Source of the DNA: a virus
IMG/VR virus record: IMGVR_UViG_3300045988_086561
Location: 1 to 36,598 of that record
Length of the DNA stretch: 36,598 bases
Strand: one strand, 5' to 3'
Each line of letters opens with the position of its first letter. Positions within the stretch are counted from its first letter, which is position 1. The notes beneath the pieces were generated by a model, which saw only the letters and a list, made by a program, of their open reading frames with translations, did not search any database and was not told the origin of the DNA. Below, piece by piece: positions 7,632 to 28,901 of this stretch. The translations under genes and the position numbers were made by a program.

Positions 7632-7648
7632 ACGGAAGGAGGCCTTAA

Positions 7649-8506: not shown

Positions 8507-8571
8507 TGGCCGGCAGCTATGAGGCCATGCCCTACTTGGGCGAAGCCGAATAACCGCATAGGGGGTGACTC

Positions 8572-10379: not shown

Positions 10380-10418
10380 TCAACCAATCATTTACCAAAA
10401 GTCTTCAAGGAGCACATT

Positions 10419-10946
10419 ATGACCCTGAAACTGGGTACAGAGATTCCCGGCACCAGTGCCGAGGGCAACATCACCACCATCTGGGTGCCGGCGATCAAGA
10501 ACATCAAGGCCCCGACCATCATCGAGCTCGAGGCCGGCACCGACATCTCGAACTACGTCATGCTTGGCGGCTGGAGCTTCGACCCGTCGCAGGACACCGT
10601 GTCCGACCAGCGCGAGAACACCGTGCAGGACTTCGGGGCCCCCGGCCGCAAGAGCGCCGGCGACATCAGCATCGAGGTCATCGACAACACGAACACGGAG
10701 CACAAGGAACAGAACGAGGCCGTCACCCTCATGCACGAGGGCGCGTCCGGCTATATCGTGCGTCGCCGCGGCATGGCCACCGACGCGCCATTGGCCTCCG
10801 GCCAGAAGCTCACCGTCGTGAGCGTGAAGTGCGGCGAAAAGAAGGTCATCAACCCGGATGCGAACACCATGATCCGCAGTCAGATCCCGCTGTTCGCTCA
10901 GGCTCCCGGCTGGGAGTCCGAGACCGCCGTGCTGACCGCAGCCTGA
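10419..10946 (+). CDS. Major tail protein
   Basis: RBS aaggag. 175 aa. Lies directly upstream of the chaperone pair and tape measure, and is followed by a hairpin. Confidence 0.7.
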   Translation: MTLKLGTEIPGTSAEGNITTIWVPAIKNIKAPTIIELEAGTDISNYVMLGGWSFDPSQDTVSDQRENTVQDFGAPGRKSAGDISIEVIDNTNTEHKEQNEAVTLMHEGASGYIVRRRGMATDAPLASGQKLTVVSVKCGEKKVINPDANTMIRSQIPLFAQAPGWESETAVLTAA

Positions 10947-10955
10947 CAAGTTCTT

Positions 10956-10992
10956 CCGTGCGGGGATTCTAAGCCTTTCTGGCCCCGCACAG
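10956..10992 (+). terminator. Hairpin after the major tail gene (possible attenuator)
   Basis: ccgtgcgggg, 17-nt loop, ccccgcacag. Followed by a CT-rich tract and no clear U-run. An analogous hairpin follows the right-arm major tail gene. Confidence 0.35.
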
Positions 10993-11047
10993 GCATTCTC
11001 TCTTCTCTCTCTCAGAAAGGTTTTCAGACTTTCAGAAAGGGATAATC

Positions 11048-11542
11048 ATGGCTTTGGAAGTGAAGCGCAAGCGCGTGGACGTCGACCTCATATTGGATCA
11101 GGAGAAGGCCGAACAGGTCGCCGCATTGGGAGCCGACCTGGAACGCGCCATGGCGCAGCATGTGACCGAGGGCGGCAACGCCGCCGCCAAACGCATCGCC
11201 GAACAAATCGACAGGCTGCGCGACGAGGTGAAGGACGACACCGTCCGCATCACCCTGGAGGCGCTGCCGCTCTCCCAGTGGCGTCAGGTACTCGAGGCGA
11301 ACACCGTCACCGAGAACGGCGTACCGAAACAACACATCGAGGACATCTGCGCCGACGCCGTCAGACTCATGGTCAGGAAGACCGTGCCGGAAACCCCCGT
11401 GGAAGAGCTGGCCAACGTCATGACCGAACTGTCCGACGGCCAGATCAGCCCCATCTGGTACGCGATCCGTGACCTGAATGCGAAGCTCATCGACCCAAAA
11501 GACGCACTCGAATCAGCCTCGCGGATAATCCGCAGACGGTAA
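11048..11542 (+). CDS. Tail assembly chaperone (gpG analogue)
   Basis: Position between the major tail and tape measure genes. Contains an in-phase slippery heptamer near its 3' end. Confidence 0.75.
   Translation: MALEVKRKRVDVDLILDQEKAEQVAALGADLERAMAQHVTEGGNAAAKRIAEQIDRLRDEVKDDTVRITLEALPLSQWRQVLEANTVTENGVPKQHIEDICADAVRLMVRKTVPETPVEELANVMTELSDGQISPIWYAIRDLNAKLIDPKDALESASRIIRRR
11494..11500 (+). promoter_or_regulatory. -1 programmed frameshift slippery heptamer C_CCA_AAA
   Basis: Zero-frame reading is gaC CCA AAA gac. The -1 frame is open from 11473 through 11910. Confidence 0.65.
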
Positions 11543-11910
11543 GGGAACTGCGAATCTGCCAGAAGCTCGGCATCAGCTACAAAAGGTGGCTTGGCTGGGA
11601 ACCGTCGTATCGGGTGGAAAGGGACGGGCATAGGCGCATCACCGGCTACACGCCGGAAACCGAATGGGATGAGACCGAACGCGAATGGATGCTCGCACTC
11701 GACGAATACGAGCGCACGCTGTGTCCGCGCTGCGGTATGCCCGTCAGCATATGCCACGACGAGCTGGCCCCCACCAAATACGCGAGCGAGGTCGGCGTCT
11801 GTCAGATCGACCTGATGCGCCGCATCGGGCTCGAAGAATACCGCAAGGACCATTCCGCGGAATCCGCCACGAAACTTGACTCACTGACCGTGGGCATCAA
11901 CCCACGATGA
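11500..11910 (+). CDS. gpT-like extension of the tail assembly chaperone (G-T fusion via -1 frameshift)
   Basis: The frame is open upstream of the listed ATG (11614) back to 11473 and has no RBS of its own. Ends 19 nt before the tape measure start. Confidence 0.65.
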   Translation, partial: RRTRISLADNPQTVRELRICQKLGISYKRWLGWEPSYRVERDGHRRITGYTPETEWDETEREWMLALDEYERTLCPRCGMPVSICHDELAPTKYASEVGVCQIDLMRRIGLEEYRKDHSAESATKLDSLTVGINPR

Positions 11911-11929
11911 TCCGACAGGAGGATATGCC

Positions 11930-14900
11930 ATGGCCGGTGGCCTGAACCGCAACATCACTGTCCGCCTGCTCGCGGACACCAGCAATTTCACCGCCGGCAT
12001 GGCCAAGGTGTCCGGCGAAAGCCAGAAGACCGCGACCACCATGGAAGCCGCCGGAGGCAAATCGAAGCTCATCACCACCGGCATCGCGGCGGCCGGCGTC
12101 GCCGCCACCGCGCTGGGCGTGGCCGCTGTCAGGATGGCGGCGGACTTCGACGCCAGCATGTCGACGGTGCAGGCCAACACCGGAGCCAGCGCAGATGAGA
12201 TGAATCAGCTCCGTCAGGCCGCCATCGATGCCGGCGCCGACACCATATACTCGGCCACCGAATCCGCCGACGCCATCAACGAACTCGGCAAAGCCGGCCT
12301 ATCGACCTCGGATATTCTCTCCGGCGGTTTGAGCGGCGCATTGAACCTCGCAGCGTCCGACGGCATGGCCGTAGGCGACGCCGCCGAACTCATGGCCACC
12401 ACCCTCAAACAGTTCAACCTGACGGGCGCCGAATCCACTCAGGTGGCCGACGCGCTGGCGGCCGGCGCAGGCAAGGCCGTCGGTTCCGCCCATGACCTCG
12501 GCCTCGCATTGAATCAGGCGGGTCTGGTGGCCAACAGCATGGGCGTCAGCATGCAGGAGACCACCGGCACGCTCGCCGCGTTCGCCAACGCCGGCATGAT
12601 AGGCAGTGACGCGGGCACCAGCCTCAAGACCATGCTCCAACGACTGGCCAGCCCCACCGACAAGGCGCAGACCCTCATGGACGAGCTCGGCATCAACGTG
12701 TACGACGCCAATGGCAAGTTCATCGGCCTTGCCGGTGCCGCAGGCCAATTGCAGAACGGTTTGAGCGGCCTGAGTCAACAGGAACGCAATGCCGCGCTCA
12801 ACACCATCTTCGGAGCCGACGCGGTGCGAGCCGCGAACGTGCTCTACGAGCAGGGCGCGGAAGGCATCGACGACTGGACGAAAGCCGTCAGCCAATCCGG
12901 CTACGCCGCGGACCTCGCCGCCAAGAAGAACGACAACCTGAAAGGCGATCTGGAGAATCTGAGCGGCTCTTTCGAATCCCTCATGATCTCTTTGGGCGAG
13001 GGAGGTCAGGGACCATTGCGCTCCCTCGTGCAGACACTCGACACCCTTGTTGACGGTTTCGCGTCATTGCCTGCGCCCGTACAGCAGTCCATAGTGCTGA
13101 TGGCGGCTCTGGTTGGAGGCAGTGTCGCAGTCCACAAAGCGATGGGGCCGCTGAACTCTAGCAGCAGCCAGCTTGCGCAAACCCTCGGATTGATTGCCGA
13201 CCCAGGGCAAAGGCTCATAGGCCTCGGCTCCGGAATCGCGTCAGCGTTCCAGACATGGGGCGCAACTTTCGGCAGTGCAGAATCTCAGATAAACACGTTT
13301 GGCACCACTATCAGTCGTTCCCAAGGCATTATGGCCGGTTTCAAAAACCTGGGAAGCGGCATAGTATCGTTGCTGGGCGGACCATGGGGCATGGCCATCA
13401 CCGCCGCAGGACTCGCGTTGTTCGCTTTCGCGCAGGATCAGCAGGCCGCCACGCAACGAGTGGACGAACTCACCCAGGCGTTGCAGAGCGGACAAAGCGC
13501 CGCCGAATACTTCAACAAGGCGCTCTCCGAAAGCGATTCGTCACGCTACACGGCCGACATATTCAGCCGTTGGACCTCCGGCTACGACAATGTGCGAGAA
13601 GCACTCGACAAGATCGGCATCGCCCACAGCACCTACATCAAGGCCATACAAGGCGAGCCCGAAGCGATTCTGCGAGTCCGCGAACAGGCCGACAGCTACC
13701 GTGACTCGCTCGGCGGCATCAACCAGATGTGGGACCGCACCTCCAACGTTGCCTACGGCGTACTGAGCGAACAGCAGGAGATCTTCGAGAAATCAGCCGC
13801 AGCGGCCAAGGAGGACGCGGCCAACTCGAAGGCCGCCGCACAGGAGAAACTGGCGCAGACGCTGGCCACGTCCGGATTGGTCGACGCGCAGTCGGCGAAC
13901 GCGGACGCCACGCAGGAATCAGCTGACGCCCAATCTATCCTTCAGGATGGTTTGGGAGCGACCACCGACGGCATCAACGAGCAGGCCACCGCCTTGGGCG
14001 AGGTCATTGACGCGCTCGGAACCTACTACGGTTTCGCGCTCTCCAGCTCCAACGCGCTCATCTCCATGCATGACTCGTTCGACAAGGCGACCGAAAGCGT
14101 GCAGAAGAACGGGCAGACGCTCGACCTGAACACCGAACAGGGACGAGCCAACCAGAGCGCGTTGAACGATCTCGCCGAATCCGCGTTGAAGGCGGCGGAA
14201 GCCCAGTCACGCAACGGCGAAGGACTCGAAGCGGTCAACGGCACCCTTGACCTGGCACGCGAGAAATACATCGCAGCTGCACATGCGATGGGCATGACCC
14301 CGGAAGCCGCAGAAGCCGCAGCCAACGCCGCCGGCCTGACCAAGGACAAGTTCGACCAGCTCGCCACCAGCGTCAACAGCATCCCCGGATCCAAAGCCAT
14401 CGACGTGAACGCCCACACCGAACCGGCCAAGAACAGCCTGACCGACCTCGGCATGACGGTGGCGAAACTTCCTAACGGCGAAATCAAAATCGACGGCGAC
14501 AACACACAGGCACTCGCCGCCATCGAGGCGGTCAACGGCGTCGAAGTGGATCCGCACACCGGTGTCATCACCATGGACAAAAGCCAGTACGACACCGCCC
14601 TCGCATTGGCGAACGGAGCGACGATCGATCCGAAGACCGGTCATCTGATGGGTGACAACAGCGACTATTGGAAGAAGATAGCCGAAGCGAACGGCTGGAC
14701 CATCGACCCGCATACCGGCATGATCTACGCGGATGACGGTCAGGCCATGAGCGTCATCACCAATCTGAACAACACGCAGATCGCGGACAAGTACTTCACC
14801 ATCCATGGCAGCTACGTCGATGATTCAGGCGGCACGTATTCGTCCAGTGGTTATCGTCCGGCCGGTGCGATGGGCAATATCCCCACCGGTAAGACCGGCG

Positions 14901-15271
14901 GCCTGTTCACCGGTTATGGGGTTTCGATGCGCGGCTACGCCACTGGCGGCAGTGTCATCGAGGGCCTCCTGCCAGGCAAGGCGAGCATCACGGGCGGCGA
15001 CAACATCACGTTGGCGAACGCGCGAGTCAAGAGCGGCGAATTCGTGTCCAATGTGAAATCCGTCGCATATTATGGCGCCGACACATACGCGGCCATGAAC
15101 CGCCGGCAGATACCCAAGGAATCGTTCTCCGGCCGGGATATCGACGTGAGCGGCGTCATCGAGGAGATACGTTCCTTCCGCGAGCAGATCGGCCCAATCA
15201 TCAGCGCGTATGCCCCGCAACTCGGCAAACGCGACTTACAGCGGCTCACCAAGGAGGTTTTGCGCACATGA
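11930..15271 (+). CDS. Tape measure protein
   Basis: 1113 aa and Ala/Gly-rich. ..AGADTIYSATESADAINELGKAGLSTSDILSGGLSGALNLAA.. is a core TMP motif. Position also fits. Confidence 0.9.
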   Translation: MAGGLNRNITVRLLADTSNFTAGMAKVSGESQKTATTMEAAGGKSKLITTGIAAAGVAATALGVAAVRMAADFDASMSTVQANTGASADEMNQLRQAAIDAGADTIYSATESADAINELGKAGLSTSDILSGGLSGALNLAASDGMAVGDAAELMATTLKQFNLTGAESTQVADALAAGAGKAVGSAHDLGLALNQAGLVANSMGVSMQETTGTLAAFANAGMIGSDAGTSLKTMLQRLASPTDKAQTLMDELGINVYDANGKFIGLAGAAGQLQNGLSGLSQQERNAALNTIFGADAVRAANVLYEQGAEGIDDWTKAVSQSGYAADLAAKKNDNLKGDLENLSGSFESLMISLGEGGQGPLRSLVQTLDTLVDGFASLPAPVQQSIVLMAALVGGSVAVHKAMGPLNSSSSQLAQTLGLIADPGQRLIGLGSGIASAFQTWGATFGSAESQINTFGTTISRSQGIMAGFKNLGSGIVSLLGGPWGMAITAAGLALFAFAQDQQAATQRVDELTQALQSGQSAAEYFNKALSESDSSRYTADIFSRWTSGYDNVREALDKIGIAHSTYIKAIQGEPEAILRVREQADSYRDSLGGINQMWDRTSNVAYGVLSEQQEIFEKSAAAAKEDAANSKAAAQEKLAQTLATSGLVDAQSANADATQESADAQSILQDGLGATTDGINEQATALGEVIDALGTYYGFALSSSNALISMHDSFDKATESVQKNGQTLDLNTEQGRANQSALNDLAESALKAAEAQSRNGEGLEAVNGTLDLAREKYIAAAHAMGMTPEAAEAAANAAGLTKDKFDQLATSVNSIPGSKAIDVNAHTEPAKNSLTDLGMTVAKLPNGEIKIDGDNTQALAAIEAVNGVEVDPHTGVITMDKSQYDTALALANGATIDPKTGHLMGDNSDYWKKIAEANGWTIDPHTGMIYADDGQAMSVITNLNNTQIADKYFTIHGSYVDDSGGTYSSSGYRPAGAMGNIPTGKTGGLFTGYGVSMRGYATGGSVIEGLLPGKASITGGDNITLANARVKSGEFVSNVKSVAYYGADTYAAMNRRQIPKESFSGRDIDVSGVIEEIRSFREQIGPIISAYAPQLGKRDLQRLTKEVLRT

Positions 15272-16104
15272 TGCACACGCTCACCTACACGTCAAACCGC
15301 GCCGGAACCGTGATTGATCTCGCCGACCCGGAGGGAATCATGTGCGGACAGATCCTGGAGCTACGCACCCGCACGTGGGAGTTCGAGCTCGGCTACCGGT
15401 CATTGCAGGCCACGCGGCCCGCGAAGACCGTCAAGGTCACCGGGCTCGTCTACGGTATCCCGGCGCTCGAAAAGGCCGAGGAACTGTTCGACGCGGACAT
15501 GTACGCCTACCTCAACGATGCCGCGAAACCCGGCGTCATCACGGTGGACGGATGGTCACAGACCTGCCTCGTGGTCGGCCACGAACCTGACTACACGTCA
15601 CCCCTGCTCGTGCGCGGCGATTTCACGGTCGCCTTGCTTGACGGGGTGTGGCACAAACCGGTCAGGCAGAGCTTCAGCCGGTCGACGGCCCGCTACAACA
15701 GAGGCAAGGACTATCCCTACGACTATCGCTACGATTACGCGCCGACCCGCAACGTCAGCAGCATCGACAACCAATCCGCCCTGCCCTCGCGGATGAGGCT
15801 CACCATTTACGGGCCGGTCTCTACGCCGAGCATCATCATCGGCGGCAACAAGGTGATAGCCGACGTGAGCGTCCCATCCGGCGGCTACCTCATCATCGAC
15901 GGCACCGGCTCACCACGCACGGCCGTGATGGTCGCCGCCAACGGCGACATCACCAACGTGTTCGACAAAACGCATCGCGACCAGGCCTCCAACGAATACG
16001 CGTTCGCCACCCTCCCGCCGGGACTGCAGCAGGTCTCATGGGATGAATCGTTCGGCTTCGACGTGGAGTACTGGTTGGAGCAGACGGGACTGCCATGGAC
16101 CTGA
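15268..16104 (+). CDS. Distal tail protein (Dit-like)
   Basis: ATGA overlap with the TMP gene. Homologous to 20899-21768 (shared TVDGWSQT..TVALLDG.WHK). Confidence 0.7.
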   Translation: MMHTLTYTSNRAGTVIDLADPEGIMCGQILELRTRTWEFELGYRSLQATRPAKTVKVTGLVYGIPALEKAEELFDADMYAYLNDAAKPGVITVDGWSQTCLVVGHEPDYTSPLLVRGDFTVALLDGVWHKPVRQSFSRSTARYNRGKDYPYDYRYDYAPTRNVSSIDNQSALPSRMRLTIYGPVSTPSIIIGGNKVIADVSVPSGGYLIIDGTGSPRTAVMVAANGDITNVFDKTHRDQASNEYAFATLPPGLQQVSWDESFGFDVEYWLEQTGLPWT

Positions 16105-17078
16105 TCTGGACCAATACCGCTCACGTGCCGCAGGGCGAACTCGTCTCCCCCGCACTCGACCTGCAGTACGGCGACGAGCAGAATGATTTCGAACTCACTC
16201 ACTCCACCCCCGGACTGCTGCTCTCCGACGGCTGCTACATCGGGGCGGAAGGCACCGAGTTCGGAGGCCGCGTCGACGCGGTGCGTATCACTGTGGATGA
16301 CGGGCATGCCCTGTATACGCTCACCGGCCGCACATGGCACGGTTTGCTTGCGGGCAAGATCCTCCAACCCGACTCCGGCGCCGACCGGCTCACGGTCTCC
16401 GGCGACGCCAACAGCATCATCCGTACGGTAATCAGCCGGATCGGACTGTCCACGGTGTTCGACGTGCCATCGGAAGCGAGCGGCATCAACATCAGCAACT
16501 ATTCGTTCCGCCGGTACATTACCGCGTGGGACGGGTTGCGCATGATGCTCACCGCGCAGGGAGCCAGACTCGACCTGACCTACACCGCTGGACGCTGCCG
16601 GATTCGCGCGGTCGCCGCCGACACGTACGGCGACGCGGACAGCGACCAGCGCATCAGTTTCGAGGCGCAACGCATCTGGACCCAAGTCAACCACCTCACG
16701 GGCCTGGGCAAAGGCCAGCTGCGCAACAGGGCGCGCAGCGACTGGTATGCGGATGCGTCCGGCAACATCTCCCAGACCCAGACTCTGACCGGCGACCGTG
16801 AGATAGCTCAGATCTACGAGCTCACATCCTCCGAAGGCGCCGAATTGTCCGACCAGACCAGGGACAAGCTCAAGGACATGTGGAAACAGGGCACCGTCGA
16901 TTTGACGATCCCCGAGAACCTTGGCCTGCATATCGACGACCATGTGCGCGCCTACGATGCGCTGACCGGCGTCAGCGTGGACAGCCCCATCGTGCGCATC
17001 ACCGTCAAACTCGCCAACGGCACACCAACCATCCGATACGAAGCCGGCCAATACAGTTGGCCCGATGAACAAGACTAA
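16095..17078 (+). CDS. Baseplate / tail-tip protein (minor tail protein)
   Basis: Follows Dit. Clear homology to 19940-20911 (GRTWHG.LA.KIL.PD..LTVSG, HL.GLGKG.L, WYADA.GN.SQTQ.L.G). Confidence 0.65.
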   Translation: MDLIWTNTAHVPQGELVSPALDLQYGDEQNDFELTHSTPGLLLSDGCYIGAEGTEFGGRVDAVRITVDDGHALYTLTGRTWHGLLAGKILQPDSGADRLTVSGDANSIIRTVISRIGLSTVFDVPSEASGINISNYSFRRYITAWDGLRMMLTAQGARLDLTYTAGRCRIRAVAADTYGDADSDQRISFEAQRIWTQVNHLTGLGKGQLRNRARSDWYADASGNISQTQTLTGDREIAQIYELTSSEGAELSDQTRDKLKDMWKQGTVDLTIPENLGLHIDDHVRAYDALTGVSVDSPIVRITVKLANGTPTIRYEAGQYSWPDEQD

Positions 17079-17087
17079 AGGAGCATC

Positions 17088-17336
17088 ATGCCGAAACAGC
17101 CCAACATCACCCTCTACTCCTGTGATCGGCCTTCGTGCGTCAACAAGGAATACGTGTTGCCCAACGCGACGGCCAGCCCCAACTGGCACGAGGTCACGCG
17201 CGTCGACCGCAACGGCAACCAGAGGAAAATCCTTTTTTGCGAATCCGACTACCAGCAGTACCTACAGTTGGCCGAAAATCAGGACAAGGATTATGACCTC
17301 TGGCTCAACAAGTCCCTCAACGCGGAAGGTAAGTGA
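17088..17336 (+). CDS. Small Cys-containing protein of the tail-tip module
   Basis: 82 aa. Shares CDR..C...W..V.R.D..G....LFCE.D...Y with 19680-19922. Lies directly upstream of the fibre gene in both arms. Confidence 0.55.
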   Translation: MPKQPNITLYSCDRPSCVNKEYVLPNATASPNWHEVTRVDRNGNQRKILFCESDYQQYLQLAENQDKDYDLWLNKSLNAEGK

Positions 17337-17338
17337 TC

Positions 17339-18172
17339 ATGGCAACAAATCTGCTTGTAACCGGCTCGCACGGCGGCGACGACCCGCACGTGGAATCGAA
17401 GCATGACGCGCTCATGCACGCCGCCATGCTCGGTCGAGGCGGATACATTTTGAAAACCCGGAATTGGACGATGAAACCGACGGCGAAGGATGCGAACAAC
17501 ATCACCATCCCAGCATGGGACCTCGTGGTCGAGGGCCGGCAGATCTACATCGCCGCACCGACCGACGTGAACATCCAATCCGGCTCGCAAGGGCAAAAAC
17601 GACGCGATCTCATCGTGGCCCGGTACGCGTTGAACTCAGGCACCGGCGTGGAGACGGTCACCCTCGAAGCCATCAAGGGCAAGCCCAGCGCGGCCACGCC
17701 CGCGGATCCAGGCATCGAGACCGGCAGCATCATCGGCGGGGCCATCGTCTCCGCCCTGCCACTCTGCCGCGTCAACCTCGACGGCATCACCATCACATCG
17801 ATTGACACGCTGGTCAATGTTATGCAGCCCTTGGAGGATGTGTGGGATTCCCTAACCCCTGTCACAGGCCAAGTCAAGATGCCGTACTCCGACAGGTATA
17901 TCACTCTGGTTCGCGTCGGCCGCATCGTCACCGCCTACGCGTATATCACGCTGACAAGCAATTTCACTCAGGTCAGCAACACATCCGTCAACGAGACAAT
18001 CCCGGAGGGTTTCAGACCGTCCGGCGATTCCCGCGCGGTCATGCGCGGCACCGACAACGGCGGCGCGACCAGTTTCTACCTTTACGGCATGCCGGAGGGG
18101 AAAATGGTGTTGAACGGCACCGGATATGCCGGCCGATTCGTCGGTATATCCGGCTGTTGGATTACCGCGTAG
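17339..18172 (+). CDS. Tail fibre / receptor-binding protein A (constant N-part plus alpha tip cassette)
   Basis: Last structural gene of the left arm. The N-part is homologous to fibre B (GSQGQKR.DLIV.RYA, LDGITI). From DVWDSLT onward it is ~97% nt identical to fibre B. ATG 17339 chosen by alignment (MATNLLVTG vs MVELVTG). Confidence 0.75.
   Translation: MATNLLVTGSHGGDDPHVESKHDALMHAAMLGRGGYILKTRNWTMKPTAKDANNITIPAWDLVVEGRQIYIAAPTDVNIQSGSQGQKRRDLIVARYALNSGTGVETVTLEAIKGKPSAATPADPGIETGSIIGGAIVSALPLCRVNLDGITITSIDTLVNVMQPLEDVWDSLTPVTGQVKMPYSDRYITLVRVGRIVTAYAYITLTSNFTQVSNTSVNETIPEGFRPSGDSRAVMRGTDNGGATSFYLYGMPEGKMVLNGTGYAGRFVGISGCWITA
17848..17858 (+). repeat. Core S1: TTCCCTAACCC inside fibre A (codons Ser-Leu-Thr)
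   Basis: Read directly. TCC starts at 17849, in the fibre A frame. Confidence 0.9.
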
Positions 18173-18174
18173 CT

Positions 18175-18185
18175 TTCCCTAACCC
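18175..18185 (+). repeat. Core S2: TTCCCTAACCC, 3 nt after the fibre A stop codon
   Basis: Read directly. Same codon phase as S1 with respect to the beta cassette downstream. Confidence 0.9.
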
Positions 18186-18490
18186 AGACCGGAGTGCTGA
18201 CGCTGATTAACTCCACTTACGGTACCGTCAAAGGCTACCGTCGCGGCTCGCTCGTCACGTTGCGCATCGACTGGAAGTCGTCGGCGTCCGGCGCGTGGAA
18301 CACCGGCAATTTCGGAACCCTGCCTGAAAGTTGGCGTCCTCCAATGGACTTGAACTTCTCCTACGGCGGACGCGACGGGGCCAACCAGAAGACCATCAAC
18401 GTAAACGCGAACGGAACCATGACCTACGCCAATCAGGGCGGCACGCAGGGCACGAACGCGTTCGGCATGACCGTCTCATACGCGCTATGA
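18176..18490 (+). other. Beta cassette: start-less alternative fibre-tip coding segment
   Basis: Open from core S2 (SLTQTGVLTLINSTYGTVKGYRRGSLVTLRIDW...TLPESWRP...). No convincing RBS or ATG. Domain pattern parallels the alpha tip (..ITLVRVGRIV...TIPEGFRP...). Confidence 0.7.
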
Positions 18491-18541
18491 CCCGTGGGGT
18501 CACTGCAAGACAGTGCAACCGCCTGAGCCAGTGTCCCGAAG

Positions 18542-18868
18542 CTATGCGGCGGGCATCGGGTCGGCGGTCCTCCATACGCCGGTGCATCCCGCGTACGCGC
18601 TGTTCGGATTGCCAAGCATCGTGACGGTGCCATTGGCCTCGCCGTAACAGATGAATGTCGTTTCACCACCGAAAACGGCCACGGGCGTATTGGCGGTGAC
18701 GGGTCGATACCCTTCGGGGAGCTTCTCCTGAGCCTTCGTGTAATTGTTCTGCCCGCTACTGTTGAATTTCACGTTGCCGCCCGCGAAGCAGATATCACCG
18801 ATGCGCGTAAGCAAAATGCTGTCGCTGCTGTAAGGTACTCGCCACGTCGTAGAACGCTGGGTTAGGGA
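18542..18868 (-). other. Gamma cassette: start-less alternative fibre-tip coding segment
   Basis: On the - strand, open from core S3 (SLTQRSTTWRVPYSSDSILLTRIGDICF...KLPEGYRP...). No RBS or ATG. VPYSSDSILLTRIGDI parallels MPYSDRYITLVRVGRI of alpha. Confidence 0.7.
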
Positions 18869-18869
18869 A
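18859..18869 (-). repeat. Core S3: TTCCCTAACCC (- strand), 3 nt after the fibre B stop codon
   Basis: The plus strand reads gggttagggaa. In phase with the gamma cassette. Confidence 0.9.
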
Positions 18870-18871
18870 AG

Positions 18872-19687
18872 CTACGCGGTAATCCAACAGCCGGATATAC
18901 CGACGAATCGGCCGGTATATCCGGTGCCGTTCAACACCATTTTCCCCTCCGGCGTGCCGTAAAGGTAGAAACTGATCGCGCCGCCGTTGTCGGTGCCGCG
19001 CATGACCGCGCGGGAATCGCCGGACGGTCTGAAACCCTTCGGGATTGTCTCGTTGACGGATGTGTTGCTGACCTGAGTGAAATTGCTTGTCAGCGTGATA
19101 TACGCGCAGGCGGTGACAATACGGCCGACACGAACCAGAGTGATATACCTGTCGGAATACGGCATCCTGACTTGGCCCGTGACAGGGGTTAGGGAATCCC
19201 ACACGTCGCTCATCGGTTTCAACACGTTAAACAAGGGGACCGGTGTGCCGATGGTGATGCCGTCCAGCGGGATGCGGTACAAGGGCATGTCGTAGGTGGT
19301 GCCCCCGTCCAACGGGCTGGTGGTGTTCACGGCGGGGTCGGTGGGCGTGCCCGTGGTGGGCGTGCCCCTGACCACGACCAGTTTCGCGCTCTCGATGTTC
19401 TGCGAGCCCTTCGCATAGCGGCATACGATGAGGTCGTTGCGTTTCTGCCCCTGCGAACCGTTGGTGACGATCAGGCCCTCGGGCGTGCCTTGGCTGACGT
19501 GACGGCCCTGCATGACCAGCTCGCCCGTACCGATGGTCACCTTGTTCGCCGAAACGACCGTGATCTTGAGCTTGTCATGCACGTTGAGCACATAATCATC
19601 CAAGCCGAGAATGCCGGCGTTCAAACCAGCGGCCTGTTCCGCCGTGGCGTGAGCCTTGTTCGCGTGTCCGGTGACGAGTTCAACCAT
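18872..19687 (-). CDS. Tail fibre / receptor-binding protein B (constant N-part plus alpha' tip cassette)
   Basis: Mirror counterpart of fibre A. ATG at 19687 is preceded by ggaggcaagcaga and overlaps the upstream gene stop (ATGGTTGA). Confidence 0.75.
   Translation of the reverse strand: MVELVTGHANKAHATAEQAAGLNAGILGLDDYVLNVHDKLKITVVSANKVTIGTGELVMQGRHVSQGTPEGLIVTNGSQGQKRNDLIVCRYAKGSQNIESAKLVVVRGTPTTGTPTDPAVNTTSPLDGGTTYDMPLYRIPLDGITIGTPVPLFNVLKPMSDVWDSLTPVTGQVRMPYSDRYITLVRVGRIVTACAYITLTSNFTQVSNTSVNETIPKGFRPSGDSRAVMRGTDNGGAISFYLYGTPEGKMVLNGTGYTGRFVGISGCWITA
19186..19196 (-). repeat. Core S4: TTCCCTAACCC (- strand) inside fibre B
   Basis: The plus strand reads gggttagggaa. Encodes Ser-Leu-Thr of DVWDSLT in fibre B. 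Confidence 0.9.
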
Positions 19688-19922
19688 TCTGCTTGCCTCC
19701 GTTCTGCATCCAACTGTCGAAGCTGTTATCAAAGTCCTTGAGCTTGTTCACATAATCCGCGTGATCCTGCTCGCAGAACAGGTAGTCGTGGCCCGTGCCG
19801 GTGGAGTCCAGCCGGTTGACGTTGTACCACGTCTTGATATCCGGGTCGTCCAAGTCCTTGTACCATTTGTGTTTCCCGCACCGGTCGCATTGCATGACCG
19901 TCGCATTGTCGATACGCGCCAT
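19680..19922 (-). CDS. Small Cys-containing protein of the tail-tip module
   Basis: 80 aa, homologous to 17088-17336. Confidence 0.55.
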   Translation of the reverse strand: MARIDNATVMQCDRCGKHKWYKDLDDPDIKTWYNVNRLDSTGTGHDYLFCEQDHADYVNKLKDFDNSFDSWMQNGGKQNG

Positions 19923-19939
19923 AATCGGCTCCTTACTGT

Positions 19940-20911
19940 TTATTCGGCCCCGTAATCGACGCTTAGGACGCCGTCGGAGACCTTGACGATTTTCTTGCTG
20001 ATAGTCGCGTTGACGGTGATGCCGGTGAGATTATCCCTTGCGGTCACGGTGTCGCCAACGTCGAACACGATGCCCGAATCCTCATGCACGGTGACCTTCA
20101 CCTCACCCTCGGACTGCAGATCCTGTAGTTTCTCACAGGTCTTCTGGTTCAGTTCGGCGGTTTCGGCGTTGCTGTAGTCGTAGACCTGCGTTATCTCGTC
20201 CACGCCCCTGAGCGACTGGGTCTGGCTGACGTTGCCTTTCGCGTCCGCATACCAGTGGACGACCACGCGGGCCGCCAAATCGCCCTTGCCCAGGCCGATG
20301 AGATGGTTCGGTTTGCGCCACGTGCTGGTCGCGTCGAAATCGATAAGGTCGCTGTCAATCGAGTCGCCGTAATGCGCGACCGGTTCGGCCCAGATGTTGA
20401 CCTGGCCGGACGTATAGGCGAGCCTGAGTTTCAGTCCGTTGGCCGCGCACATCCTCCGCAAACCCGTATAGCAGTCCGTGTACCGGTCGAACTGGTATTG
20501 TTTGATGGTTGGGTCGTCACTGCCGTCAGGCGGTACAACCGCGTCGAACACCGAATCCAACCCGACACGGCTGATGAGCGAGCCGATGACCGTGCTGGCC
20601 GTGCCGCTCACGGTGAGATAATCCTTGCCCCTATCCGGTTCAAGGATTTTGTTCGCGAGCACGCCGTGCCATGTGCGCCCCGAGTAGGTGAGGGTGCTGA
20701 CGCCGGCAGTGAGCTGGTCTTCCATCGCATCGACCACGCCACCGCATTCGCTGCCGTCGACGTAGATATAGGCACCCGCGTCGATGGTGGACGCGCCGCT
20801 CACGACAAGTTCGAAATCGTTTTCCTCCTTGCCCCACGCGCAATCCAGAGTGAAGTCGGCGGCGGAACGGACATCGACGTGATTGGAGTCGGTGATAATC
20901 AGGTCCACCAT
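19940..20911 (-). CDS. Baseplate / tail-tip protein (minor tail protein)
   Basis: Homologous to 16095-17078. Follows Dit. Confidence 0.65.
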   Translation of the reverse strand: MVDLIITDSNHVDVRSAADFTLDCAWGKEENDFELVVSGASTIDAGAYIYVDGSECGGVVDAMEDQLTAGVSTLTYSGRTWHGVLANKILEPDRGKDYLTVSGTASTVIGSLISRVGLDSVFDAVVPPDGSDDPTIKQYQFDRYTDCYTGLRRMCAANGLKLRLAYTSGQVNIWAEPVAHYGDSIDSDLIDFDATSTWRKPNHLIGLGKGDLAARVVVHWYADAKGNVSQTQSLRGVDEITQVYDYSNAETAELNQKTCEKLQDLQSEGEVKVTVHEDSGIVFDVGDTVTARDNLTGITVNATISKKIVKVSDGVLSVDYGAE

Positions 20912-21768
20912 GACGGCGTGCTCCTCTCCTGGATCACGGTCAGGTCAAAGCCGAAGCCGTTCCACTGCACCTGGTGTTCTCCGGCCGGCAACGGCTGGAA
21001 GATATAACTGCCGCCGTTGATGCCGCTGCCTCGTTCGCCCTTGTCGAACACGTTCGTGGTGTCGCCGTTTTCTGCGGTCATGACGATGCTTCGTTGTCCC
21101 TCCACGCTGTTGACGGTCACATACGAGCCCGAGGGGATGTCCATATGCAATTCATACCGGTTGACGCCGATGATGATGGCCGGCTGTGAGACCGGCCCGT
21201 AGACCACCAGTTCGAACGGCATCGGCGAGACGGCATCGTTAGCGACCGTCGCGTTTCGTGTCGTCGGCAGGTAGTCGTGAGGGTAATCGTGCGGGTAATC
21301 AAGGTCGAGGCCCGGTTGCAGGGCATCCGACCAGAAATGCTGCACGTCGTCGCGCTTGTGCCACAGGCCGTCAAGCAATGCGACCGTGAGCGCGTACTTC
21401 GCGGGACCGGGCGGATCATAGGATGGTTCGATGCCGGTGATGAGCGCGGTCTGCGACCAGCCGTCCACGGTGAGCAGTCCGGCGTCGTCCTTGCTGCGGG
21501 ATGACGCCACGGCCTTTACGTCCGCGTCGAACAGTTCGCTCGCCACGTCCAGCACGTTGAGGTCGGCGCACGTGGCCTCCAATTGGACGCTTGACGCGTT
21601 GAGGGAGGCGGAGTCAATGCCGTGCGCGGCCAACTCCACCTCCCATGCGTGCGTGCGCAGGCTCTCGATGCGTTTGACCATGAGACCGGCCGGGTCGATG
21701 AGATCAACGGCCCCAGCCGAAACGGCGCGGCTTGATCCTCCGCCTCGCCGGTAGGTCATCGACTGCAT
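20899..21768 (-). CDS. Distal tail protein (Dit-like)
   Basis: Follows the TMP gene. Homologous to 15268-16104. Confidence 0.7.
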   Translation of the reverse strand: MQSMTYRRGGGSSRAVSAGAVDLIDPAGLMVKRIESLRTHAWEVELAAHGIDSASLNASSVQLEATCADLNVLDVASELFDADVKAVASSRSKDDAGLLTVDGWSQTALITGIEPSYDPPGPAKYALTVALLDGLWHKRDDVQHFWSDALQPGLDLDYPHDYPHDYLPTTRNATVANDAVSPMPFELVVYGPVSQPAIIIGVNRYELHMDIPSGSYVTVNSVEGQRSIVMTAENGDTTNVFDKGERGSGINGGSYIFQPLPAGEHQVQWNGFGFDLTVIQERSTPSWWT

Positions 21769-21783
21769 GACTGTCCTCCTGTT

Positions 21784-24700
21784 TTAGACGAGACCAAGCC
21801 TGCGCTTCTCTTCGCGGATGGTCATGGATGGCGTGTACTTAGCGATGGTCGGCCCCAAATCACCGTGCAATGCCTGCAGGTCGGAGCGCAGGCCGCGAAG
21901 CTCCACAAGCATCGACGCGAGGTCTGCGAGCCCATTCCCGGTTTCAGGCAATGGGGTGGAGCCCTCCACACCAATGGCGGAGCGCAACGTCATCGGCTGG
22001 AATGCCGACTGTGCGGCGGCCGTGACACCCTGCATCCGCTTCGCGATGTCACGCTGCAATGCGGGGGTGGCCTTGTCAATGCCCTCGCTGATGCCGGGCG
22101 GGATGTAGCGGCCGACTTCGTCGCGGAACACGCGGGACGGCGAATGGATGCCGAGCGCTTCCTTCGCCTTATCGACCAGTCCGGAAAGCGCGCCCTTGAT
22201 CTTGTCGTACAATCCGCCGATGGCACCGCTGATGCCGTTCCACAGACCACTGATGAGCTGCGAGCCGGCGTTTTTGAGCAGCGAGCCAGCTCCGGCGAAC
22301 ACGCCCTTGATGGCGCTCACGATGCCCGACACCAAGCCGCCGACCGCTCCGGCCGCGTTGGAAAGAATCGATTTGAAACTGTTCCAAGCTCCCGACCAGT
22401 TGCCGTTGATGAGGTTGGTGACCATGCTGATGACACCGGAAATAACGCCGACCACGCCCTGGATTACGCCTTGTATGCCGTCGATGACACCCGACACATA
22501 TGGGAGCATCGCCTGCACCGCAGGCAACAACGTACCGGTGATGAATCCGATGATTGCGCTCACTACCGAGCCGACCACGCTGATGATGCTCTGGATGACC
22601 GGCATCAGCTGTTGGATGATGCCTGTGATGCCCGAGACCGCATCGGTTATGACTGGCACGAGCTGTTGGATGAGCGGCGTGATGGCGGTGACCAGCTGGC
22701 TAACGAAATCCATGACCTGCTGGATTACCGGGACGAGCGCGGAGGCGAGCTGGCTGATGACTTGGCCTATCATCGACACGATCTGCGAGGCGACCGGCAG
22801 CAGCGCGGCGATGATGTCCGCCAACGGTGGCAGCAGGCTGGACACGAGCTGGCCGATGAGCGGCATGAGCGAGCTGAGCGCGTTCATGAGCGGTTCGATG
22901 ATCGTCGGGATGAGCGGTGCCAGCGACTGGAGTATGTCGCCGAACACTGGGATGAGCTCCGCGACAGAAGCGGTGATCACCGGCATGACCTGTTTGAACA
23001 TGTCCTGCAGGCTTTTGCCGAACGCATCGAACGTCGGCTTCATTCCCGCGATCGTGTTCTTGAACAGGTTGAACGCGCCGGTGACCTGCGTGCCGAAGGC
23101 GTTGCGCAGTTCCGGCACCGTGGCGATGAGCGTGCCCAACGCTGCGACGACGATGCCGATGGGTCCGCCCAACGCGCTCAACGGGCCGGACAATCCGCCG
23201 AGCACCCCGCCGAGCAACGGAATCTTGGACAGCAATGGTGCGATGCCGCCTGCTCCGAGGGCCATGAATGCAGCTATCAGAGGGGCGATGGCGCTCTGCA
23301 CGGGTTTGAATATCTCGCCGAGCCCGTTGAATACGCTGCCGATGGCGTTGATCGCGTTCTGGAACGGTTCAGGCAGGAGCGTCACCAGATCCGAGAACAG
23401 GCTCGGGATGGCTTTGACGACGCTCTGGGCGATGACCTTCACGCGGGGCAGGATGTTCTTCAACGCAGTGCCGATGGAGTCGGCGAGCTGCTGGCTGAGA
23501 GCGCCCATGTCGGCGTTCTCGTTGCCCAGTCCGGCGAGCCAGTTCTGCCATGCGGCCTTCATCGAGTTCACGGACCCCTCGATGGTGGTCGCCGCCTCCT
23601 TGGCGGTCGTGCCGCTGATGCCGAGGCTCTTCTGCACTCGGCTGATGGCCTCGGTCACGTCGGCGAACGAATCGATGGAAAGGTCGTTGCCTTCCTTCAT
23701 CACGCCCGGCAGCTTGTTCGCGTCGGCGATGAGCCGCTGCATTTCCGTCTTGGTGCCGCCGTAGCCGAGCTTGAGGTTGTCCAGCATCGCGTAATTGCCG
23801 CGAGCAAGCGACTGATACGTCTGTTGGATGGTCTGGATGTCGGTGCCCATCTTGTTGGCGTTGTCCGACATGTCGATGATGGCCTGATTGCCCATCTCTG
23901 CGGCCTTGGCGGTGTCCCCGCCAAGCGAACTGACCAACGAGGCCGCGAAGCTCGTGACCTGGTTCATATAGTCGTTCGCGCCGACGCCGGCCGTCTTGTA
24001 CGCTTCGGCCGCGTACTTCTGCACAGTGCCGGAAGCGCCCTTGAACAGGGTGTCGACGCCGCCGACCGCCTGCTCCCACGTGGCATACGCGCCCAACGCC
24101 TGCTTGCCGGTGGCCACCAGCGTGCCGCCGATGGCTGCCACACCTGCTCCGATGGCGGCGACCGCTCCCGTGGCGAGGCCCTTGATATGGGCGACCGCGT
24201 TTTGGGCGAGGTTTTTGAACGAGTTGCCTGCGCTGGAGGCGAGGTTGCCGAGCGTGCTGCCGATTGCCCCGGCGGCGGTCTGTGCTCCGGCTGGGAGTTT
24301 GGACCATACGGCTCCGGCGGCGGTGGCGATGTTGCCGAAGTAGTTCTTGGCTACGTTGGCTACCGGTGCGAGTTTCTGCCCTACTTTTCCTGCGGCATCT
24401 CCGATGGCGGAGCCGATTTTGCCGCCGAATGAGCGGATGGGTGCGGTCCAAGTAGCGACTGCCGTTCTGATGGTGTTGCCGGTTCTGCTTCCCCAGTCGC
24501 GAATCGGTTGCGTCCATGCGGTGATTGCCGCGCCGATTGGTTTGGCGATGCCTGACACGGTGGCTGCGATGCTGCCGCCCCAGCCTTTGAGGGTTTGCTG
24601 GGCGGCGCTGATGGCTCCCTTGAGTCCGGTTTGGATTTTCGCGCCGACCTGCACGGCGAAACCGCTCAATGAGGATACGGCCTTGTTCGCGAATCCGGCT

Positions 24701-25374
24701 ATCTTGGAGCCGAGCGGTTTCCAAATGGCGTCTACGCCGAGCAGGCTACGCACGAGGCTGCCGAGCGCTCCAGAGAGTCCGGTGAAGGTGGATTGGCCCC
24801 GGCTGATGCTCGAGAATCCAGCCGAGAACGAGCTTGCCATCGTCTTCATGGAACCGGATACGGTGTTGGTGCCCTTGGCGAGTTCGTCCTCGGCGGCCTT
24901 GAGCGCCTTCTTCGCGTCCGCGAGCCGTTCGGCGGCGTCGTTGGAATTGTCGAGAGCGGTGGCCTGACGCAACTGGGCTTTTTCGAGATTGATGGAGGCG
25001 GTCTGCGCCTGAGTCGAATCCGACCCGTATCTGGCGATGGCCGAGTTGAGCCTCTCCTGCGCCTGCTGCACGTTGACCGTGGCCTGACGGTAGTTCAGGA
25101 GCGCGGCGCTGGCCTTGGAGGACGCCTGCGCCGCGTCACGCTTCAACGGTTTCAGCACATCGTCGGCGACGCCCCGGGCACTCGAACCGAATGCCTTTTT
25201 GAAGCTGCCGCCGAACGATTTGCCGATTTTCGAACCGTTGCCGAACGCCTGGGAGAAACGGTTGGAACCGGACTTGCCGGCCCCCCGCATCTCCTTGTCG
25301 ACCGCGCTGCGGAAGCCCTTCATCGAGGGGAATATCGACACGTGGCCGGTTCCCACTTCCGATCCGAAAGCCAT
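21784..25374 (-). CDS. Tape measure protein
   Basis: 1196 aa with long Gly/Ala/Ser/Ile-rich repetitive helices (..LIPVFGDILQSLAPLIPTIIEPLMNALSSLMPLIGQLV..). Position fits. No evident similarity to the left-arm TMP. Confidence 0.9.
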   Translation of the reverse strand: MAFGSEVGTGHVSIFPSMKGFRSAVDKEMRGAGKSGSNRFSQAFGNGSKIGKSFGGSFKKAFGSSARGVADDVLKPLKRDAAQASSKASAALLNYRQATVNVQQAQERLNSAIARYGSDSTQAQTASINLEKAQLRQATALDNSNDAAERLADAKKALKAAEDELAKGTNTVSGSMKTMASSFSAGFSSISRGQSTFTGLSGALGSLVRSLLGVDAIWKPLGSKIAGFANKAVSSLSGFAVQVGAKIQTGLKGAISAAQQTLKGWGGSIAATVSGIAKPIGAAITAWTQPIRDWGSRTGNTIRTAVATWTAPIRSFGGKIGSAIGDAAGKVGQKLAPVANVAKNYFGNIATAAGAVWSKLPAGAQTAAGAIGSTLGNLASSAGNSFKNLAQNAVAHIKGLATGAVAAIGAGVAAIGGTLVATGKQALGAYATWEQAVGGVDTLFKGASGTVQKYAAEAYKTAGVGANDYMNQVTSFAASLVSSLGGDTAKAAEMGNQAIIDMSDNANKMGTDIQTIQQTYQSLARGNYAMLDNLKLGYGGTKTEMQRLIADANKLPGVMKEGNDLSIDSFADVTEAISRVQKSLGISGTTAKEAATTIEGSVNSMKAAWQNWLAGLGNENADMGALSQQLADSIGTALKNILPRVKVIAQSVVKAIPSLFSDLVTLLPEPFQNAINAIGSVFNGLGEIFKPVQSAIAPLIAAFMALGAGGIAPLLSKIPLLGGVLGGLSGPLSALGGPIGIVVAALGTLIATVPELRNAFGTQVTGAFNLFKNTIAGMKPTFDAFGKSLQDMFKQVMPVITASVAELIPVFGDILQSLAPLIPTIIEPLMNALSSLMPLIGQLVSSLLPPLADIIAALLPVASQIVSMIGQVISQLASALVPVIQQVMDFVSQLVTAITPLIQQLVPVITDAVSGITGIIQQLMPVIQSIISVVGSVVSAIIGFITGTLLPAVQAMLPYVSGVIDGIQGVIQGVVGVISGVISMVTNLINGNWSGAWNSFKSILSNAAGAVGGLVSGIVSAIKGVFAGAGSLLKNAGSQLISGLWNGISGAIGGLYDKIKGALSGLVDKAKEALGIHSPSRVFRDEVGRYIPPGISEGIDKATPALQRDIAKRMQGVTAAAQSAFQPMTLRSAIGVEGSTPLPETGNGLADLASMLVELRGLRSDLQALHGDLGPTIAKYTPSMTIREEKRRLGLV

Positions 25375-25404
25375 AAGGCGACTCCCCTCTTAGTTGATGG
25401 TTGT

Positions 25405-25743
25405 TTATCCGAAGAGCTTGCTCATATGCGTTTCGGCCTCGTGGATCTCCTCGGCGGTGGGCTCGTCCGTTTCGGGTTCGCCGTCCACGTCGCCGAGCAG
25501 CGTGGAAGCGCCGAGGAACTGCAATACGGTGATGTCGGTGGCGCTCATGGGGAACATGAGGCCGATGAGCGAGGCTCCCGTGTAGGAGGACGGGTCGCCG
25601 CACAGCGCCGTGTACAGGTCGATGGCGTCACGGTAGGGGAGACGCCGGCCGAGATCGTGTTCGATGCTCCACCCGAATCGGGCGAAGTCCGCTCGGACCT
25701 TTACTCCGTCATCGGAGTTGAGGATTCGGCAGAAGTCGGCGAT
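25405..25743 (-). CDS. gpT-like extension of the tail assembly chaperone (G-T fusion via -1 frameshift)
   Basis: The -1 frame relative to 25701-26120 continues ..ELGK|IADFCRILNSDDGVKVRADF.. and ends 30 nt before the TMP start. Confidence 0.65.
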   Translation of the reverse strand: MADFCRILNSDDGVKVRADFARFGWSIEHDLGRRLPYRDAIDLYTALCGDPSSYTGASLIGLMFPMSATDITVLQFLGASTLLGDVDGEPETDEPTAEEIHEAETHMSKLFG

Positions 25744-26120
25744 TTTCCCAGTTCGACGCCCTGTGATTTGGCGAGCGTCTCCCCGTAGTCCTGGATGAGG
25801 TTGAACGCGACCTGCATGGGTTCGTGTTCGAGTCGTTCGGCCTGCTCGTCGCCGGCGAAAACGGTGAGGATGCGTTTGACCTGTTCGAGGCTTTCCGTGT
25901 CGGTCTGTGTGTTCGACAGGGCCTCGAAGTCGGCGATGGAAAGATAGAGGGGCAGTTTGTAGACGGTGCCGCCGGGTGTCAGTGCCCAGTATTCGTTGTT
26001 CTTGATGATGTGTCGCACCTTGACCTGGTTGGCGACCTCGGCGAGGGCCTCGGCCTCCCTGGTCTCGTCCCAATCCTCGAATTCAGCGATCGAGGGTGCC
26101 GTGTTCTGCTGCTTTGCCAT
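25701..26120 (-). CDS. Tail assembly chaperone (gpG analogue)
   Basis: Start MAKQQNT preceded by caggag. Lies between the major tail and TMP genes. Confidence 0.7.
   Translation of the reverse strand: MAKQQNTAPSIAEFEDWDETREAEALAEVANQVKVRHIIKNNEYWALTPGGTVYKLPLYLSIADFEALSNTQTDTESLEQVKRILTVFAGDEQAERLEHEPMQVAFNLIQDYGETLAKSQGVELGKSPTSAESSTPMTE
25743..25749 (-). promoter_or_regulatory. -1 programmed frameshift slippery heptamer G_GGA_AAA
   Basis: The - strand reads ctG GGA AAA tcg in the chaperone zero frame (plus strand: ttttccc). Confidence 0.65.
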
Positions 26121-26169
26121 GATGGTTTCTCCTGTCATACGTGTTTCTCCCGTCGTTGGTGTTGGGGCT

Positions 26170-26203
26170 CCCCGCATGCCGACAGGAGAGAGGTCATGCG
26201 GGG
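26170..26203 (-). terminator. Hairpin after the major tail gene (possible attenuator)
   Basis: ccccgcatg, 16-nt loop, catgcgggg (9-bp stem) just downstream of the 26217 stop. Confidence 0.4.
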
Positions 26204-26216
26204 AAGAGTGCTGATG

Positions 26217-26804: not shown

Positions 26805-26874
26805 TCCATTGTCCTTTCAAAATGAAAAGACCCCGCAACGCATGCAGGGTCTAGGAAAACGGTTAAGGGATTGG

Positions 26875-27578: not shown

Positions 27579-27581
27579 CGG

Positions 27582-28477: not shown

Positions 28478-28500
28478 CGTTCGCCTCCAGTCGATTCACG

Positions 28501-28890: not shown

Positions 28891-28901
28891 CGGCGGTCAC
28901 C

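Follow-up and report, generated by a model that had tools for sequence, protein, structure and literature searches.

The Rin shufflon was described in the dnaJ2-integrated Bifidobacterium prophages Bb423phi1, Bl157phi1 and Bl30698phi1, and is composed of a constant region (Rc) of 168 aa, several dissimilar C-terminal cassettes (Rv) of 95-100 aa and a flanking gene for a tyrosine recombinase, rin (Mavrich et al. 2018, PMC6109161). The full-length gene of the system carries one recombination site, rix, internally and another just past its stop codon. Rin is an invertase, such that inversion alters the expressed tip, and inversion variants were found in both prophage and virion reads (PMC6109161). 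A closely similar locus is present in the IMG/VR virus record IMGVR_UViG_3300045988_086561, which was analysed over its whole length of 36,598 nt (the window). There, two genes for receptor-binding (fibre) proteins, A and B, converge on a set of shared cassettes, and each gene ends a packaging-to-tail arm of a different phage type, P1 for gene A and P2 for gene B. The locus is the known Rin shufflon, already published down to its 11-mer; what is unusual is its context, with two converging arms, and not the shufflon itself.

Identity of the locus with the Rin shufflon

Four exact copies of the 11-mer TTCCCTAACCC, designated S1 to S4, are present in the window (Table 1), and a scan of the full window gives no fifth copy, even with one mismatch allowed. 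At one mismatch, 0.26 copies are expected by chance, and at least four copies occurred in 0 of 100 shuffles. The spacing of S1 to S2 and that of S3 to S4 are both 327 nt. A preliminary description of this DNA, made from the sequence alone, had reported the positions of the cores, their spacing and their common codon phase, all of which were reproduced by the window search and by translation; its concern that further copies might have escaped notice is removed by the full scan. It had also proposed a comparison of the core with published sites, and the core proves to match the rix site letter for letter, as printed in PMC6109161. The Rin shufflon had been mentioned in that description and is indeed the relevant system, but it was cited as background only, and the identity of the core with rix was not recognized.

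All of the published features of the Rin shufflon are found in the window, with the exception of the recombinase. Each fibre gene has two direct rix sites, S1 and S2 for gene A and S4 and S3 for gene B, with the other pair inverted. Both genes read ..DVWD-SLT-PVTGQ.. across S1 or S4, and both terminate in ..GCWITA, with the stop codon two bases ahead of S2 or S3. Up to the core, the constant regions Rc1 (gene A) and Rc2 (gene B) have 170 aa and 164 aa, respectively, and the PHROG matches to fibre A are split at residue ~175, which is at the core. The expressed cassettes of the two genes, alpha and alpha', form a 377-nt inverted repeat that is 94% complementary, with mismatches at 11 of 338 positions and a longest exact run of 67 nt. 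The cassettes beta (105 aa) and gamma (109 aa; alpha has 108 aa) read SLTQ.. from the core onward in the same frame, and neither is provided with a start codon; therefore, both are presumed to be silent.

The likeness to the published shufflon thus includes the identical 11-bp core, a constant Rc with Rv cassettes of ~100 aa that lack starts, a pair of direct rix sites for every expressed gene, beyond which further sites are inverted, and a position after the genes for the tape measure protein (TMP), Dit and the minor tail protein. In addition, the arms of the window are identical to those of prophages that end at dnaJ, and its cassettes are common to dozens of loci that carry rin. The window differs in that it is without rin, in the place of which stand a second, inverted Rc gene and the whole left arm of another phage type. 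Neither an att site nor an integrase that would mark integration at the 3' end of dnaJ2 is present in the window, and phages that share identical arm proteins end in holin-dnaJ-hrcA.

Related loci were compared in a set of 487, gathered by exact-protein look-ups and scans and designated by L numbers. The standard layout is found in 86 of these, which include near-identical P1 and P2 phages: genes for TMP, Dit, the minor tail protein and an 80-aa protein are followed by an Rc::Rv fusion, one to four more cassettes, rix and rin, with rix 6-10 nt past the stop codon of the 289-aa rin of the Phage_integrase family, on the strand opposite to Rc. Beyond rin lie a GH25 lysin, a holin and, where visible, dnaJ-hrcA. 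The 98-aa product of the beta open reading frame is found, identical, in 121 index blocks, without exception inside standard Rc..rin shufflons, and in other loci beta is fused to Rc1 or to Rc2.

Comparison by BLAST of window positions 17000-20000 with 20 related loci gives blocks of homology that end at 17858, 18175/18185, 18859/18869 and 19186/19196, and in these loci alpha and the beta/gamma segment are found in changed order and orientation. Elsewhere, Rc1 and Rc2 are each found joined to alpha, to beta and to gamma in full-length genes, which accounts for all six possible fusions. Many contigs, some of them from isolates of other Bifidobacterium species, break off at the first rix, which is how a heterogeneous, inverting locus affects short-read assemblies. 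As judged by comparison of loci, shuffling is real in the relatives. The same comparison demonstrates what the site is, how the cassettes are built and permuted from genome to genome, and that they are normally linked to rin. The preliminary reading of the cores as crossover sites of a multi-inversion system is therefore right, given that the 11-mer is the published rix and that homology to the 20 loci breaks there.

Preservation of the four 11-mers through chance, or through coding constraint on Ser-Leu-Thr alone, with no function in recombination, was considered and rejected as next to impossible. The equal codon phase of the four copies is what such constraint would give; however, four copies were not obtained in any of the shuffles, S2 and S3 lie outside the expressed genes, and the core is unchanged across 369 distinct contexts that have unrelated right flanks. 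The rearrangement breakpoints between genomes coincide with the core, and inversion variants have been published for the system (Mavrich et al. 2018, PMC6109161).

A site logo built from the 369 distinct contexts of all loci has an invariant G at -3, R at -4, W at -1 and T at -5 (75%), with no conservation rightward of the core. Because conservation is found only to the left of the core, the rix site is asymmetric, like the sfx site of R64. The left flank is GTGTGGGA at sites adjacent to Rc and CTGA(A/G)(C)GGGA at sites adjacent to rin, and the GGGA directly left of the core is common to the two types.

On the basis of the literature and of the comparison of loci, the fibre gene would consist of a constant N-terminal Rc that ends in ..DVWD at rix and of one expressed C-terminal Rv cassette, with further start-less cassettes downstream, each preceded by an in-frame rix. 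The phage tyrosine recombinase Rin would invert the DNA between opposed rix sites and thereby swap the expressed tip. In its normal form, a P1 or P2 prophage carries Rc, alpha and the segment with convergent beta and gamma, followed by one further cassette, a rin gene of its own, lysis genes and, at dnaJ2, attR.

The preliminary description had proposed a search for a recombinase of the Rci/Rin or Hin/Gin type. None is encoded in the window, where tblastn gave no homologue of rin or int, and scans against Pfam and PHROGs gave no recombinase family and no serine invertase; rin is present in the 86 related loci.

The shufflon of R64 and IncI plasmids, in which Rci acts at sfx sites to exchange the tips of pilV, is similar in having several invertible segments, one of them with two convergent cassettes, in switching the C-terminal tip of an adhesin, and in its asymmetric site, conserved on one side only. 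The rix sites of the window, with their core, G at -3, R at -4, W at -1 and a free right flank, resemble the one-sided site of R64. Rin also shares with Rci that it is a tyrosine recombinase without an arm-binding domain (PMC6109161). The two systems differ in the sequence of the site and in the clade of the recombinase; R64 has a pilin as its cargo and one expression site, whereas the system of the window belongs to an actinobacterial host and its cargo is a phage receptor-binding protein. Gin, Cin and Min of Mu, P1 and p15B also switch host range by means of inverted fibre C-termini, and Min is a multi-segment shufflon as well, but these are serine invertases that act with an enhancer and Fis, whereas the relatives of the window carry a tyrosine recombinase (Pfam Phage_integrase). 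A fibre switch of the Gin/Cin/Min type was rejected, given that the window holds no serine recombinase and that the rin of its relatives is of the Phage_integrase family.

Two prophage arms and the origin of their join

The window is not one self-contained element but brings together two left (packaging-to-tail) arms, each from a different, ordinary type of prophage. The mirror symmetry noted in the preliminary description for the cassettes holds and stretches over the whole window, with two packaging-to-tail modules that converge on the cassettes. Both arms have identical proteins in the same gene order in dnaJ2 prophages, and both are very common as ordinary single prophages, with the minor tail protein found in 2887 index blocks for P1 (a 327-aa protein) and 608 for P2; TMP has 1113 aa in P1 and 1196 aa in P2. 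In other loci, the P1 and P2 types each carry their own cassettes, followed by their own rin, lysis genes and dnaJ. Family scans of the window itself gave no genes for recombinase, lysis, integration or replication.

Alignment with normal prophages locates the join. Window positions 16001-18874 align as one piece with the normal P1 loci L485 (98.5%) and L089 (97.9%), both of which continue with S3, another cassette and rin, whereas positions 18170-21000 align as one piece with the normal P2 locus L487 (99.2%), which continues with S2, another cassette and rin. The regions of fibres A and B are correspondingly colinear with these P1 and P2 loci, and a protein identical to fibre B is encoded in the independent contig L021. 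Positions 1-18874 are therefore colinear with a normal P1 and 18170-36598 with a normal P2, and the join can lie only within the 705-bp overlap. Given that this segment reads beta><gamma in P1 and gamma><beta in P2, the two types share it as a 705-bp inverted repeat. A contig that enters the segment from P1 and leaves it along P2 in reverse acquires a second fibre gene that resembles a second expression site.

The unusual point claimed in the preliminary description, two expression sites that draw on one cassette pool, is accordingly unproven. It is weakened by the lack of a recombinase in the window and by the cassettes and rin that each tail module normally has of its own, and further in that the window is a merge of two normal phages over 705 bp, with both of its ends on the same k=77 vertex.

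The ends of the window are exact reverse complements of each other over 77 of 77 nt, with the first mismatch at position 78. The repeat marks a mosaic module boundary, at which it forms a vertex of the assembly graph (k=77). Since a 77-nt exact repeat is what two edges leaving such a vertex produce, the window is a whole contig with both ends on one vertex. In 55 IMG/VR contigs, the 77-nt sequence occurs once, at an internal position. On its upstream side, phages of the P1 and P2 types that come from unrelated samples show full identity over as much as 619-690 nt; therefore, a sample that holds both phages has an unresolvable shared node there, and position 78 is a sharp mosaic module boundary of many phages (L304-L358). 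The outer ~1.5 kb of the window (1-1489 versus 35107-36598) are 86-100% complementary piecewise, and the two long arms 87% and 90%. A phrog_8013 protein is encoded at each end, and the HNH gene of the left arm (1517-1915) lies just outside the repeat.

There is about an even chance that the join was made by the assembler, along a path that leaves and re-enters the same vertex at k=77; this origin is slightly more likely than a cellular one, and the two-ended layout is at least as likely to be an assembly product as a natural arrangement. The contig shows the traits of a fold-back chimera, with the same k-mer inverted at both ends and a join inside a shared inverted repeat; these are necessary and not sufficient, since a physical inversion yields the same graph. 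At least four other contigs or pairs of contigs (L198, L268, L084/L237 and L378) end in hairpins within a single phage, in which the end of Rc and the segment are followed by the identical Rc end, inverted, for k or fewer nucleotides. The graph edge from the segment back into Rc is therefore routinely followed. L021, in which the same P2 arm was assembled independently, matches window positions 18789-29687 with 0 mismatches and stops at position 18566, which lies exactly 55 nt into the invariant central stretch (~190 nt) of the segment, counted from position 18621, where the gamma allele families diverge. A k=55 graph that holds a second Rin phage would behave in this way.

Several observations weigh against an assembler origin. 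The de Bruijn graph is the same with or without a physical inversion, and the k=77 signature alone is no proof of an artefact. SPAdes usually halts at unresolved repeats and does not guess. L003, a raw MEGAHIT unitig of 243 kb, passes straight through an analogous junction of two phages, which is hard to obtain if competing edges of comparable depth were present, since these should have broken the unitig. Including the window and L003, five contigs made by different assemblers (also L032, L278 and L384) have two converging Rc genes from two phages, and three reciprocal contigs with two converging rin genes of different alleles (L060, L137 and L129+L190) are likewise from different assemblers. 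Finally, L089, a 345-kb scaffold of the P1 lineage of the window with an identical TMP, has tandem prophages at dnaJ2, where an integrase gene replaces dnaJ after the holin, and so provides the substrate for an inversion.

The join may instead be physical, a possibility that falls somewhat short of an even chance. One inversion between two Rin prophages in the same orientation in one chromosome, for example in tandem at dnaJ2, would pair the minus-oriented S3 of P1 with the plus-oriented site after alpha' of P2 and flip the intervening ~40 kb. The catalyst would be Rin, or else RecA acting in the 705-bp inverted segment. Both fibre genes would be left intact and converging on the shared cassettes, and the reciprocal junction, with two rin genes converging on cassettes, would lie elsewhere. 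Rin from the reciprocal junction could keep shuffling, such that both fibres would in effect draw on one pool, while the prophages would be split and locked in the chromosome.

One such event between a standard P1 (L089 or L485) and a standard P2 (L487 or L482) gives the topology of the window base for base, with reading frames kept, and the contigs discussed above supply a tandem lysogen, reciprocal junctions with two different rin alleles and an analogous junction crossed within a 243-kb contig. L021 also bears on this explanation, in that its identity to the window extends over 10.9 kb, through S3 to a patch in gamma, and is followed by 6 mismatches in its last 223 nt (18566-18788), with the break within 81 nt of the S3 core.

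However, the arrangement was seen in no isolate, long-read-style or species-representative genome: all such contigs have the standard layout, and no converging Rc pair is present in the species-representative genomes. As evidence for an assembler origin this absence was set aside as uninformative, given that only ~23 contigs are informative and that, at a rate of ~1-2%, fewer than one case is expected among them. The second prophage of the L089 tandem does not have the P2 protein of the window, no pair of junction and reciprocal junction (J and J') from one sample was seen, and the same-phage hairpins indicate that the graph offers the path without any physical inversion. If catalysed by Rin, the inversion would also require action across ~40 kb.

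An att-like break followed by an integrase gene of ~400 aa on the other strand, after the holin and with no dnaJ, was observed in L089 (22988-23342, within the 345-kb scaffold) and in L031 (17800-19059), and at six similar places besides. Tandem prophages at dnaJ2 seem not to be rare.

A patch of gamma at 18759-18788, in which six clustered transitions distinguish the window from its otherwise identical twin L021, agrees with the second ("family-2") family of gamma alleles, with ICFAGG encoded in place of ICFMGG. The patch looks like a short gene conversion between cassette alleles. It was rejected as a sign of an assembly mosaic, given that it belongs to a natural allele family and that the shared flank of 41 nt is too short for k=77. 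At 30 nt, the patch is likewise too short for a k=77 artefact and suggests a real exchange between cassettes of co-resident phages, which counts in favour of a physical join.

An evolved, self-contained double-ended shufflon would be one element with two tail modules and two fibre genes that draw on one pool, with its recombinase encoded elsewhere. Both fibre genes are intact and in frame with every cassette, and there are five contigs with two converging Rc genes, as such an element would predict. However, the window holds two complete, non-homologous packaging-head-tail sets and no genes for replication, lysis, integration or recombination, and each arm is nearly identical (97-100%) to its counterpart in an ordinary single prophage with a rin gene of its own. 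The partner phage varies over the five contigs (P2, P3 and P4 types), such that no two-ended architecture is conserved, and the contig ends are a graph vertex and not biological termini. This explanation is largely refuted and very improbable.

Fold-back misjoins and inversions between prophages resemble the window in the head-to-head union of two sequences with a common inverted repeat that exceeds the insert size, and the misjoins also in that the contig is bounded by an inverted repeat of length k. The window differs in that the repeat is itself site-specifically invertible, such that a programmed recombinase could make the join, and not just RecA or an assembler. Other bacteria are well known to undergo inversions between prophages that share a host.

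Features of the window and variation among related loci

The features of the window are collected in Table 1. A scan for promoters and terminators and the folding of the spacer between beta and gamma gave nothing above background, with no terminator and no unusual fold. No match to positions 17000-20000 was found by blastn against the phage GenBank collection. Look-ups of the exact products of fibre A (with two alternative starts), the gamma open reading frame and fibre B, together with scans of IMG/VR and the metagenome collection for a 36-mer specific to the window, gave only the twin contig L021. The likeness of the structure of the receptor-binding protein to those of lactococcal phages is taken from the published work (Mavrich et al. 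2018, PMC6109161), since a sequence search of the PDB with fibre A gave no significant match.

Table 1. Coordinates of the shufflon, the two flanking arms and the contig ends in the 36,598-nt window
Feature	Position	Strand	Remarks
Receptor-binding (fibre) gene A	17339..18172	+	277 aa; Rc1 (17339-17847) joined at S1 to alpha (17848-18172); from translation
Receptor-binding (fibre) gene B	18872..19687	-	271 aa; Rc2 (19687-19197) joined at S4 to alpha' (19196-18872); from translation
rix site S1	17848..17858	+	Rc-proximal type; left flank GTGTGGGA
rix site S2	18175..18185	+	internal type; left flank GCGTAGCT, the 3' end of alpha
rix site S3	18859..18869	-	internal type
rix site S4	19186..19196	-	Rc-proximal type; left flank GTGTGGGA
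Presumed silent cassette beta (Rv)	18176..18490	+	continues the frame of the core; lacks a start codon
Spacer between convergent cassettes	18491..18541		inside a ~190-nt stretch (about 18430-18620) near-invariant among all alleles
Presumed silent cassette gamma (Rv)	18542..18868	-	mosaic, with a "family-2" patch (18759-18788) within a "family-1" background
Overlap of S2, beta, spacer, gamma and S3	18170..18874		705 bp; common to P1 and P2 in opposite orientation
P1 left arm	1..17338	+	phrog_8013 gene, HNH, packaging, SPP1-type portal, capsid, tail (family scans)
P1 tail end genes	TMP 11930-15271; Dit 15268-16104; minor tail protein 16095-17078; 82-aa gene 17088-17336	+	
P2 left arm	19688..36598	-	phrog_8013 gene, small terminase, portal, protease, HK97-type capsid, tail (family scans)
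P2 tail end genes	TMP 25374-21784; Dit 21768-20899; minor tail protein 20911-19940; 80-aa gene 19922-19680	-	
Terminal inverted repeat	1..77 and 36522..36598		exact reverse complements, 77/77; first mismatch at position 78

Some related loci depart from the standard layout. Two (L011 and L092) are without rin, and three (L007, L024 and L035) have rin but no detected exact core; these look like decayed or fixed shufflons, in which some fibre genes have lost cassettes and rin. Insertion sequence elements with an rve-family transposase are present between rin and the cassettes in L481 (8399-9712) and in the lysis-proximal module of L005 (15385-16656) and L006 (16121-17392). In L178, a type-2 constant gene (3942-4739) lies in the "wrong" orientation directly after a minus-oriented rix; it has lost its own core, with DVWD followed by unrelated sequence, and runs into a reversed fragment of a structural gene. 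Either a misjoin of another kind or the decay of a prophage may account for this locus.

The same cassettes and rin are found with ppx-gppA on the host side in L478 and L480, and with an amidase and r1t-type holin lysis cassette and a different tail module in L479. Therefore, the shufflon moves as a module among phage backbones. More distant relatives of the constant domain, at 29-70% identity, are present in species-representative genomes (L098-L118) of many Bifidobacterium species, Alloscardovia, Olsenella, Collinsella, Slackia and others, and several isolate contigs among these stop exactly at the end of the constant domain. Most of them lack the exact Bifidobacterium core and so presumably rely on different sites.

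Consequences for shufflon-bearing phages and their hosts

The comparison adds to the description of the Rin system that its cassettes are common to several tail-module types and att sites, that its site is asymmetric with an invariant G at -3, and that relatives of the constant domain reach the Coriobacteriia. It also bears on the use of viral contigs, in that invertible shufflon segments common to co-occurring phages give head-to-head contigs with inverted termini of length k. Tools for the estimation of completeness that accept inverted terminal repeats could miscall such contigs, this one included, as complete genomes.

No report of inversion between prophages by Rin was found in the literature searched and, to our knowledge, inversion of this kind between elements is unreported for Rci. 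It is plausible, if somewhat less than evenly probable, that two prophages in one host have their shufflons recombined by Rin, or by RecA acting on the invertible segment, to give a physical double-ended shufflon with ~40 kb inverted. Two tail modules would then share one pool, both rin genes would lie together at the reciprocal junction, and the prophages would be split and locked. A physical join would be a new behaviour of a known system, with two shufflons fused and two fibres sampling one set of cassettes, and would extend the action of a phage host-range recombinase to rearrangement of the host chromosome between prophages, which would thereby be disabled. In that case, the host-range switch would double as a driver of chromosomal inversion from prophage to prophage, and of the grounding of prophages, in gut bifidobacteria.

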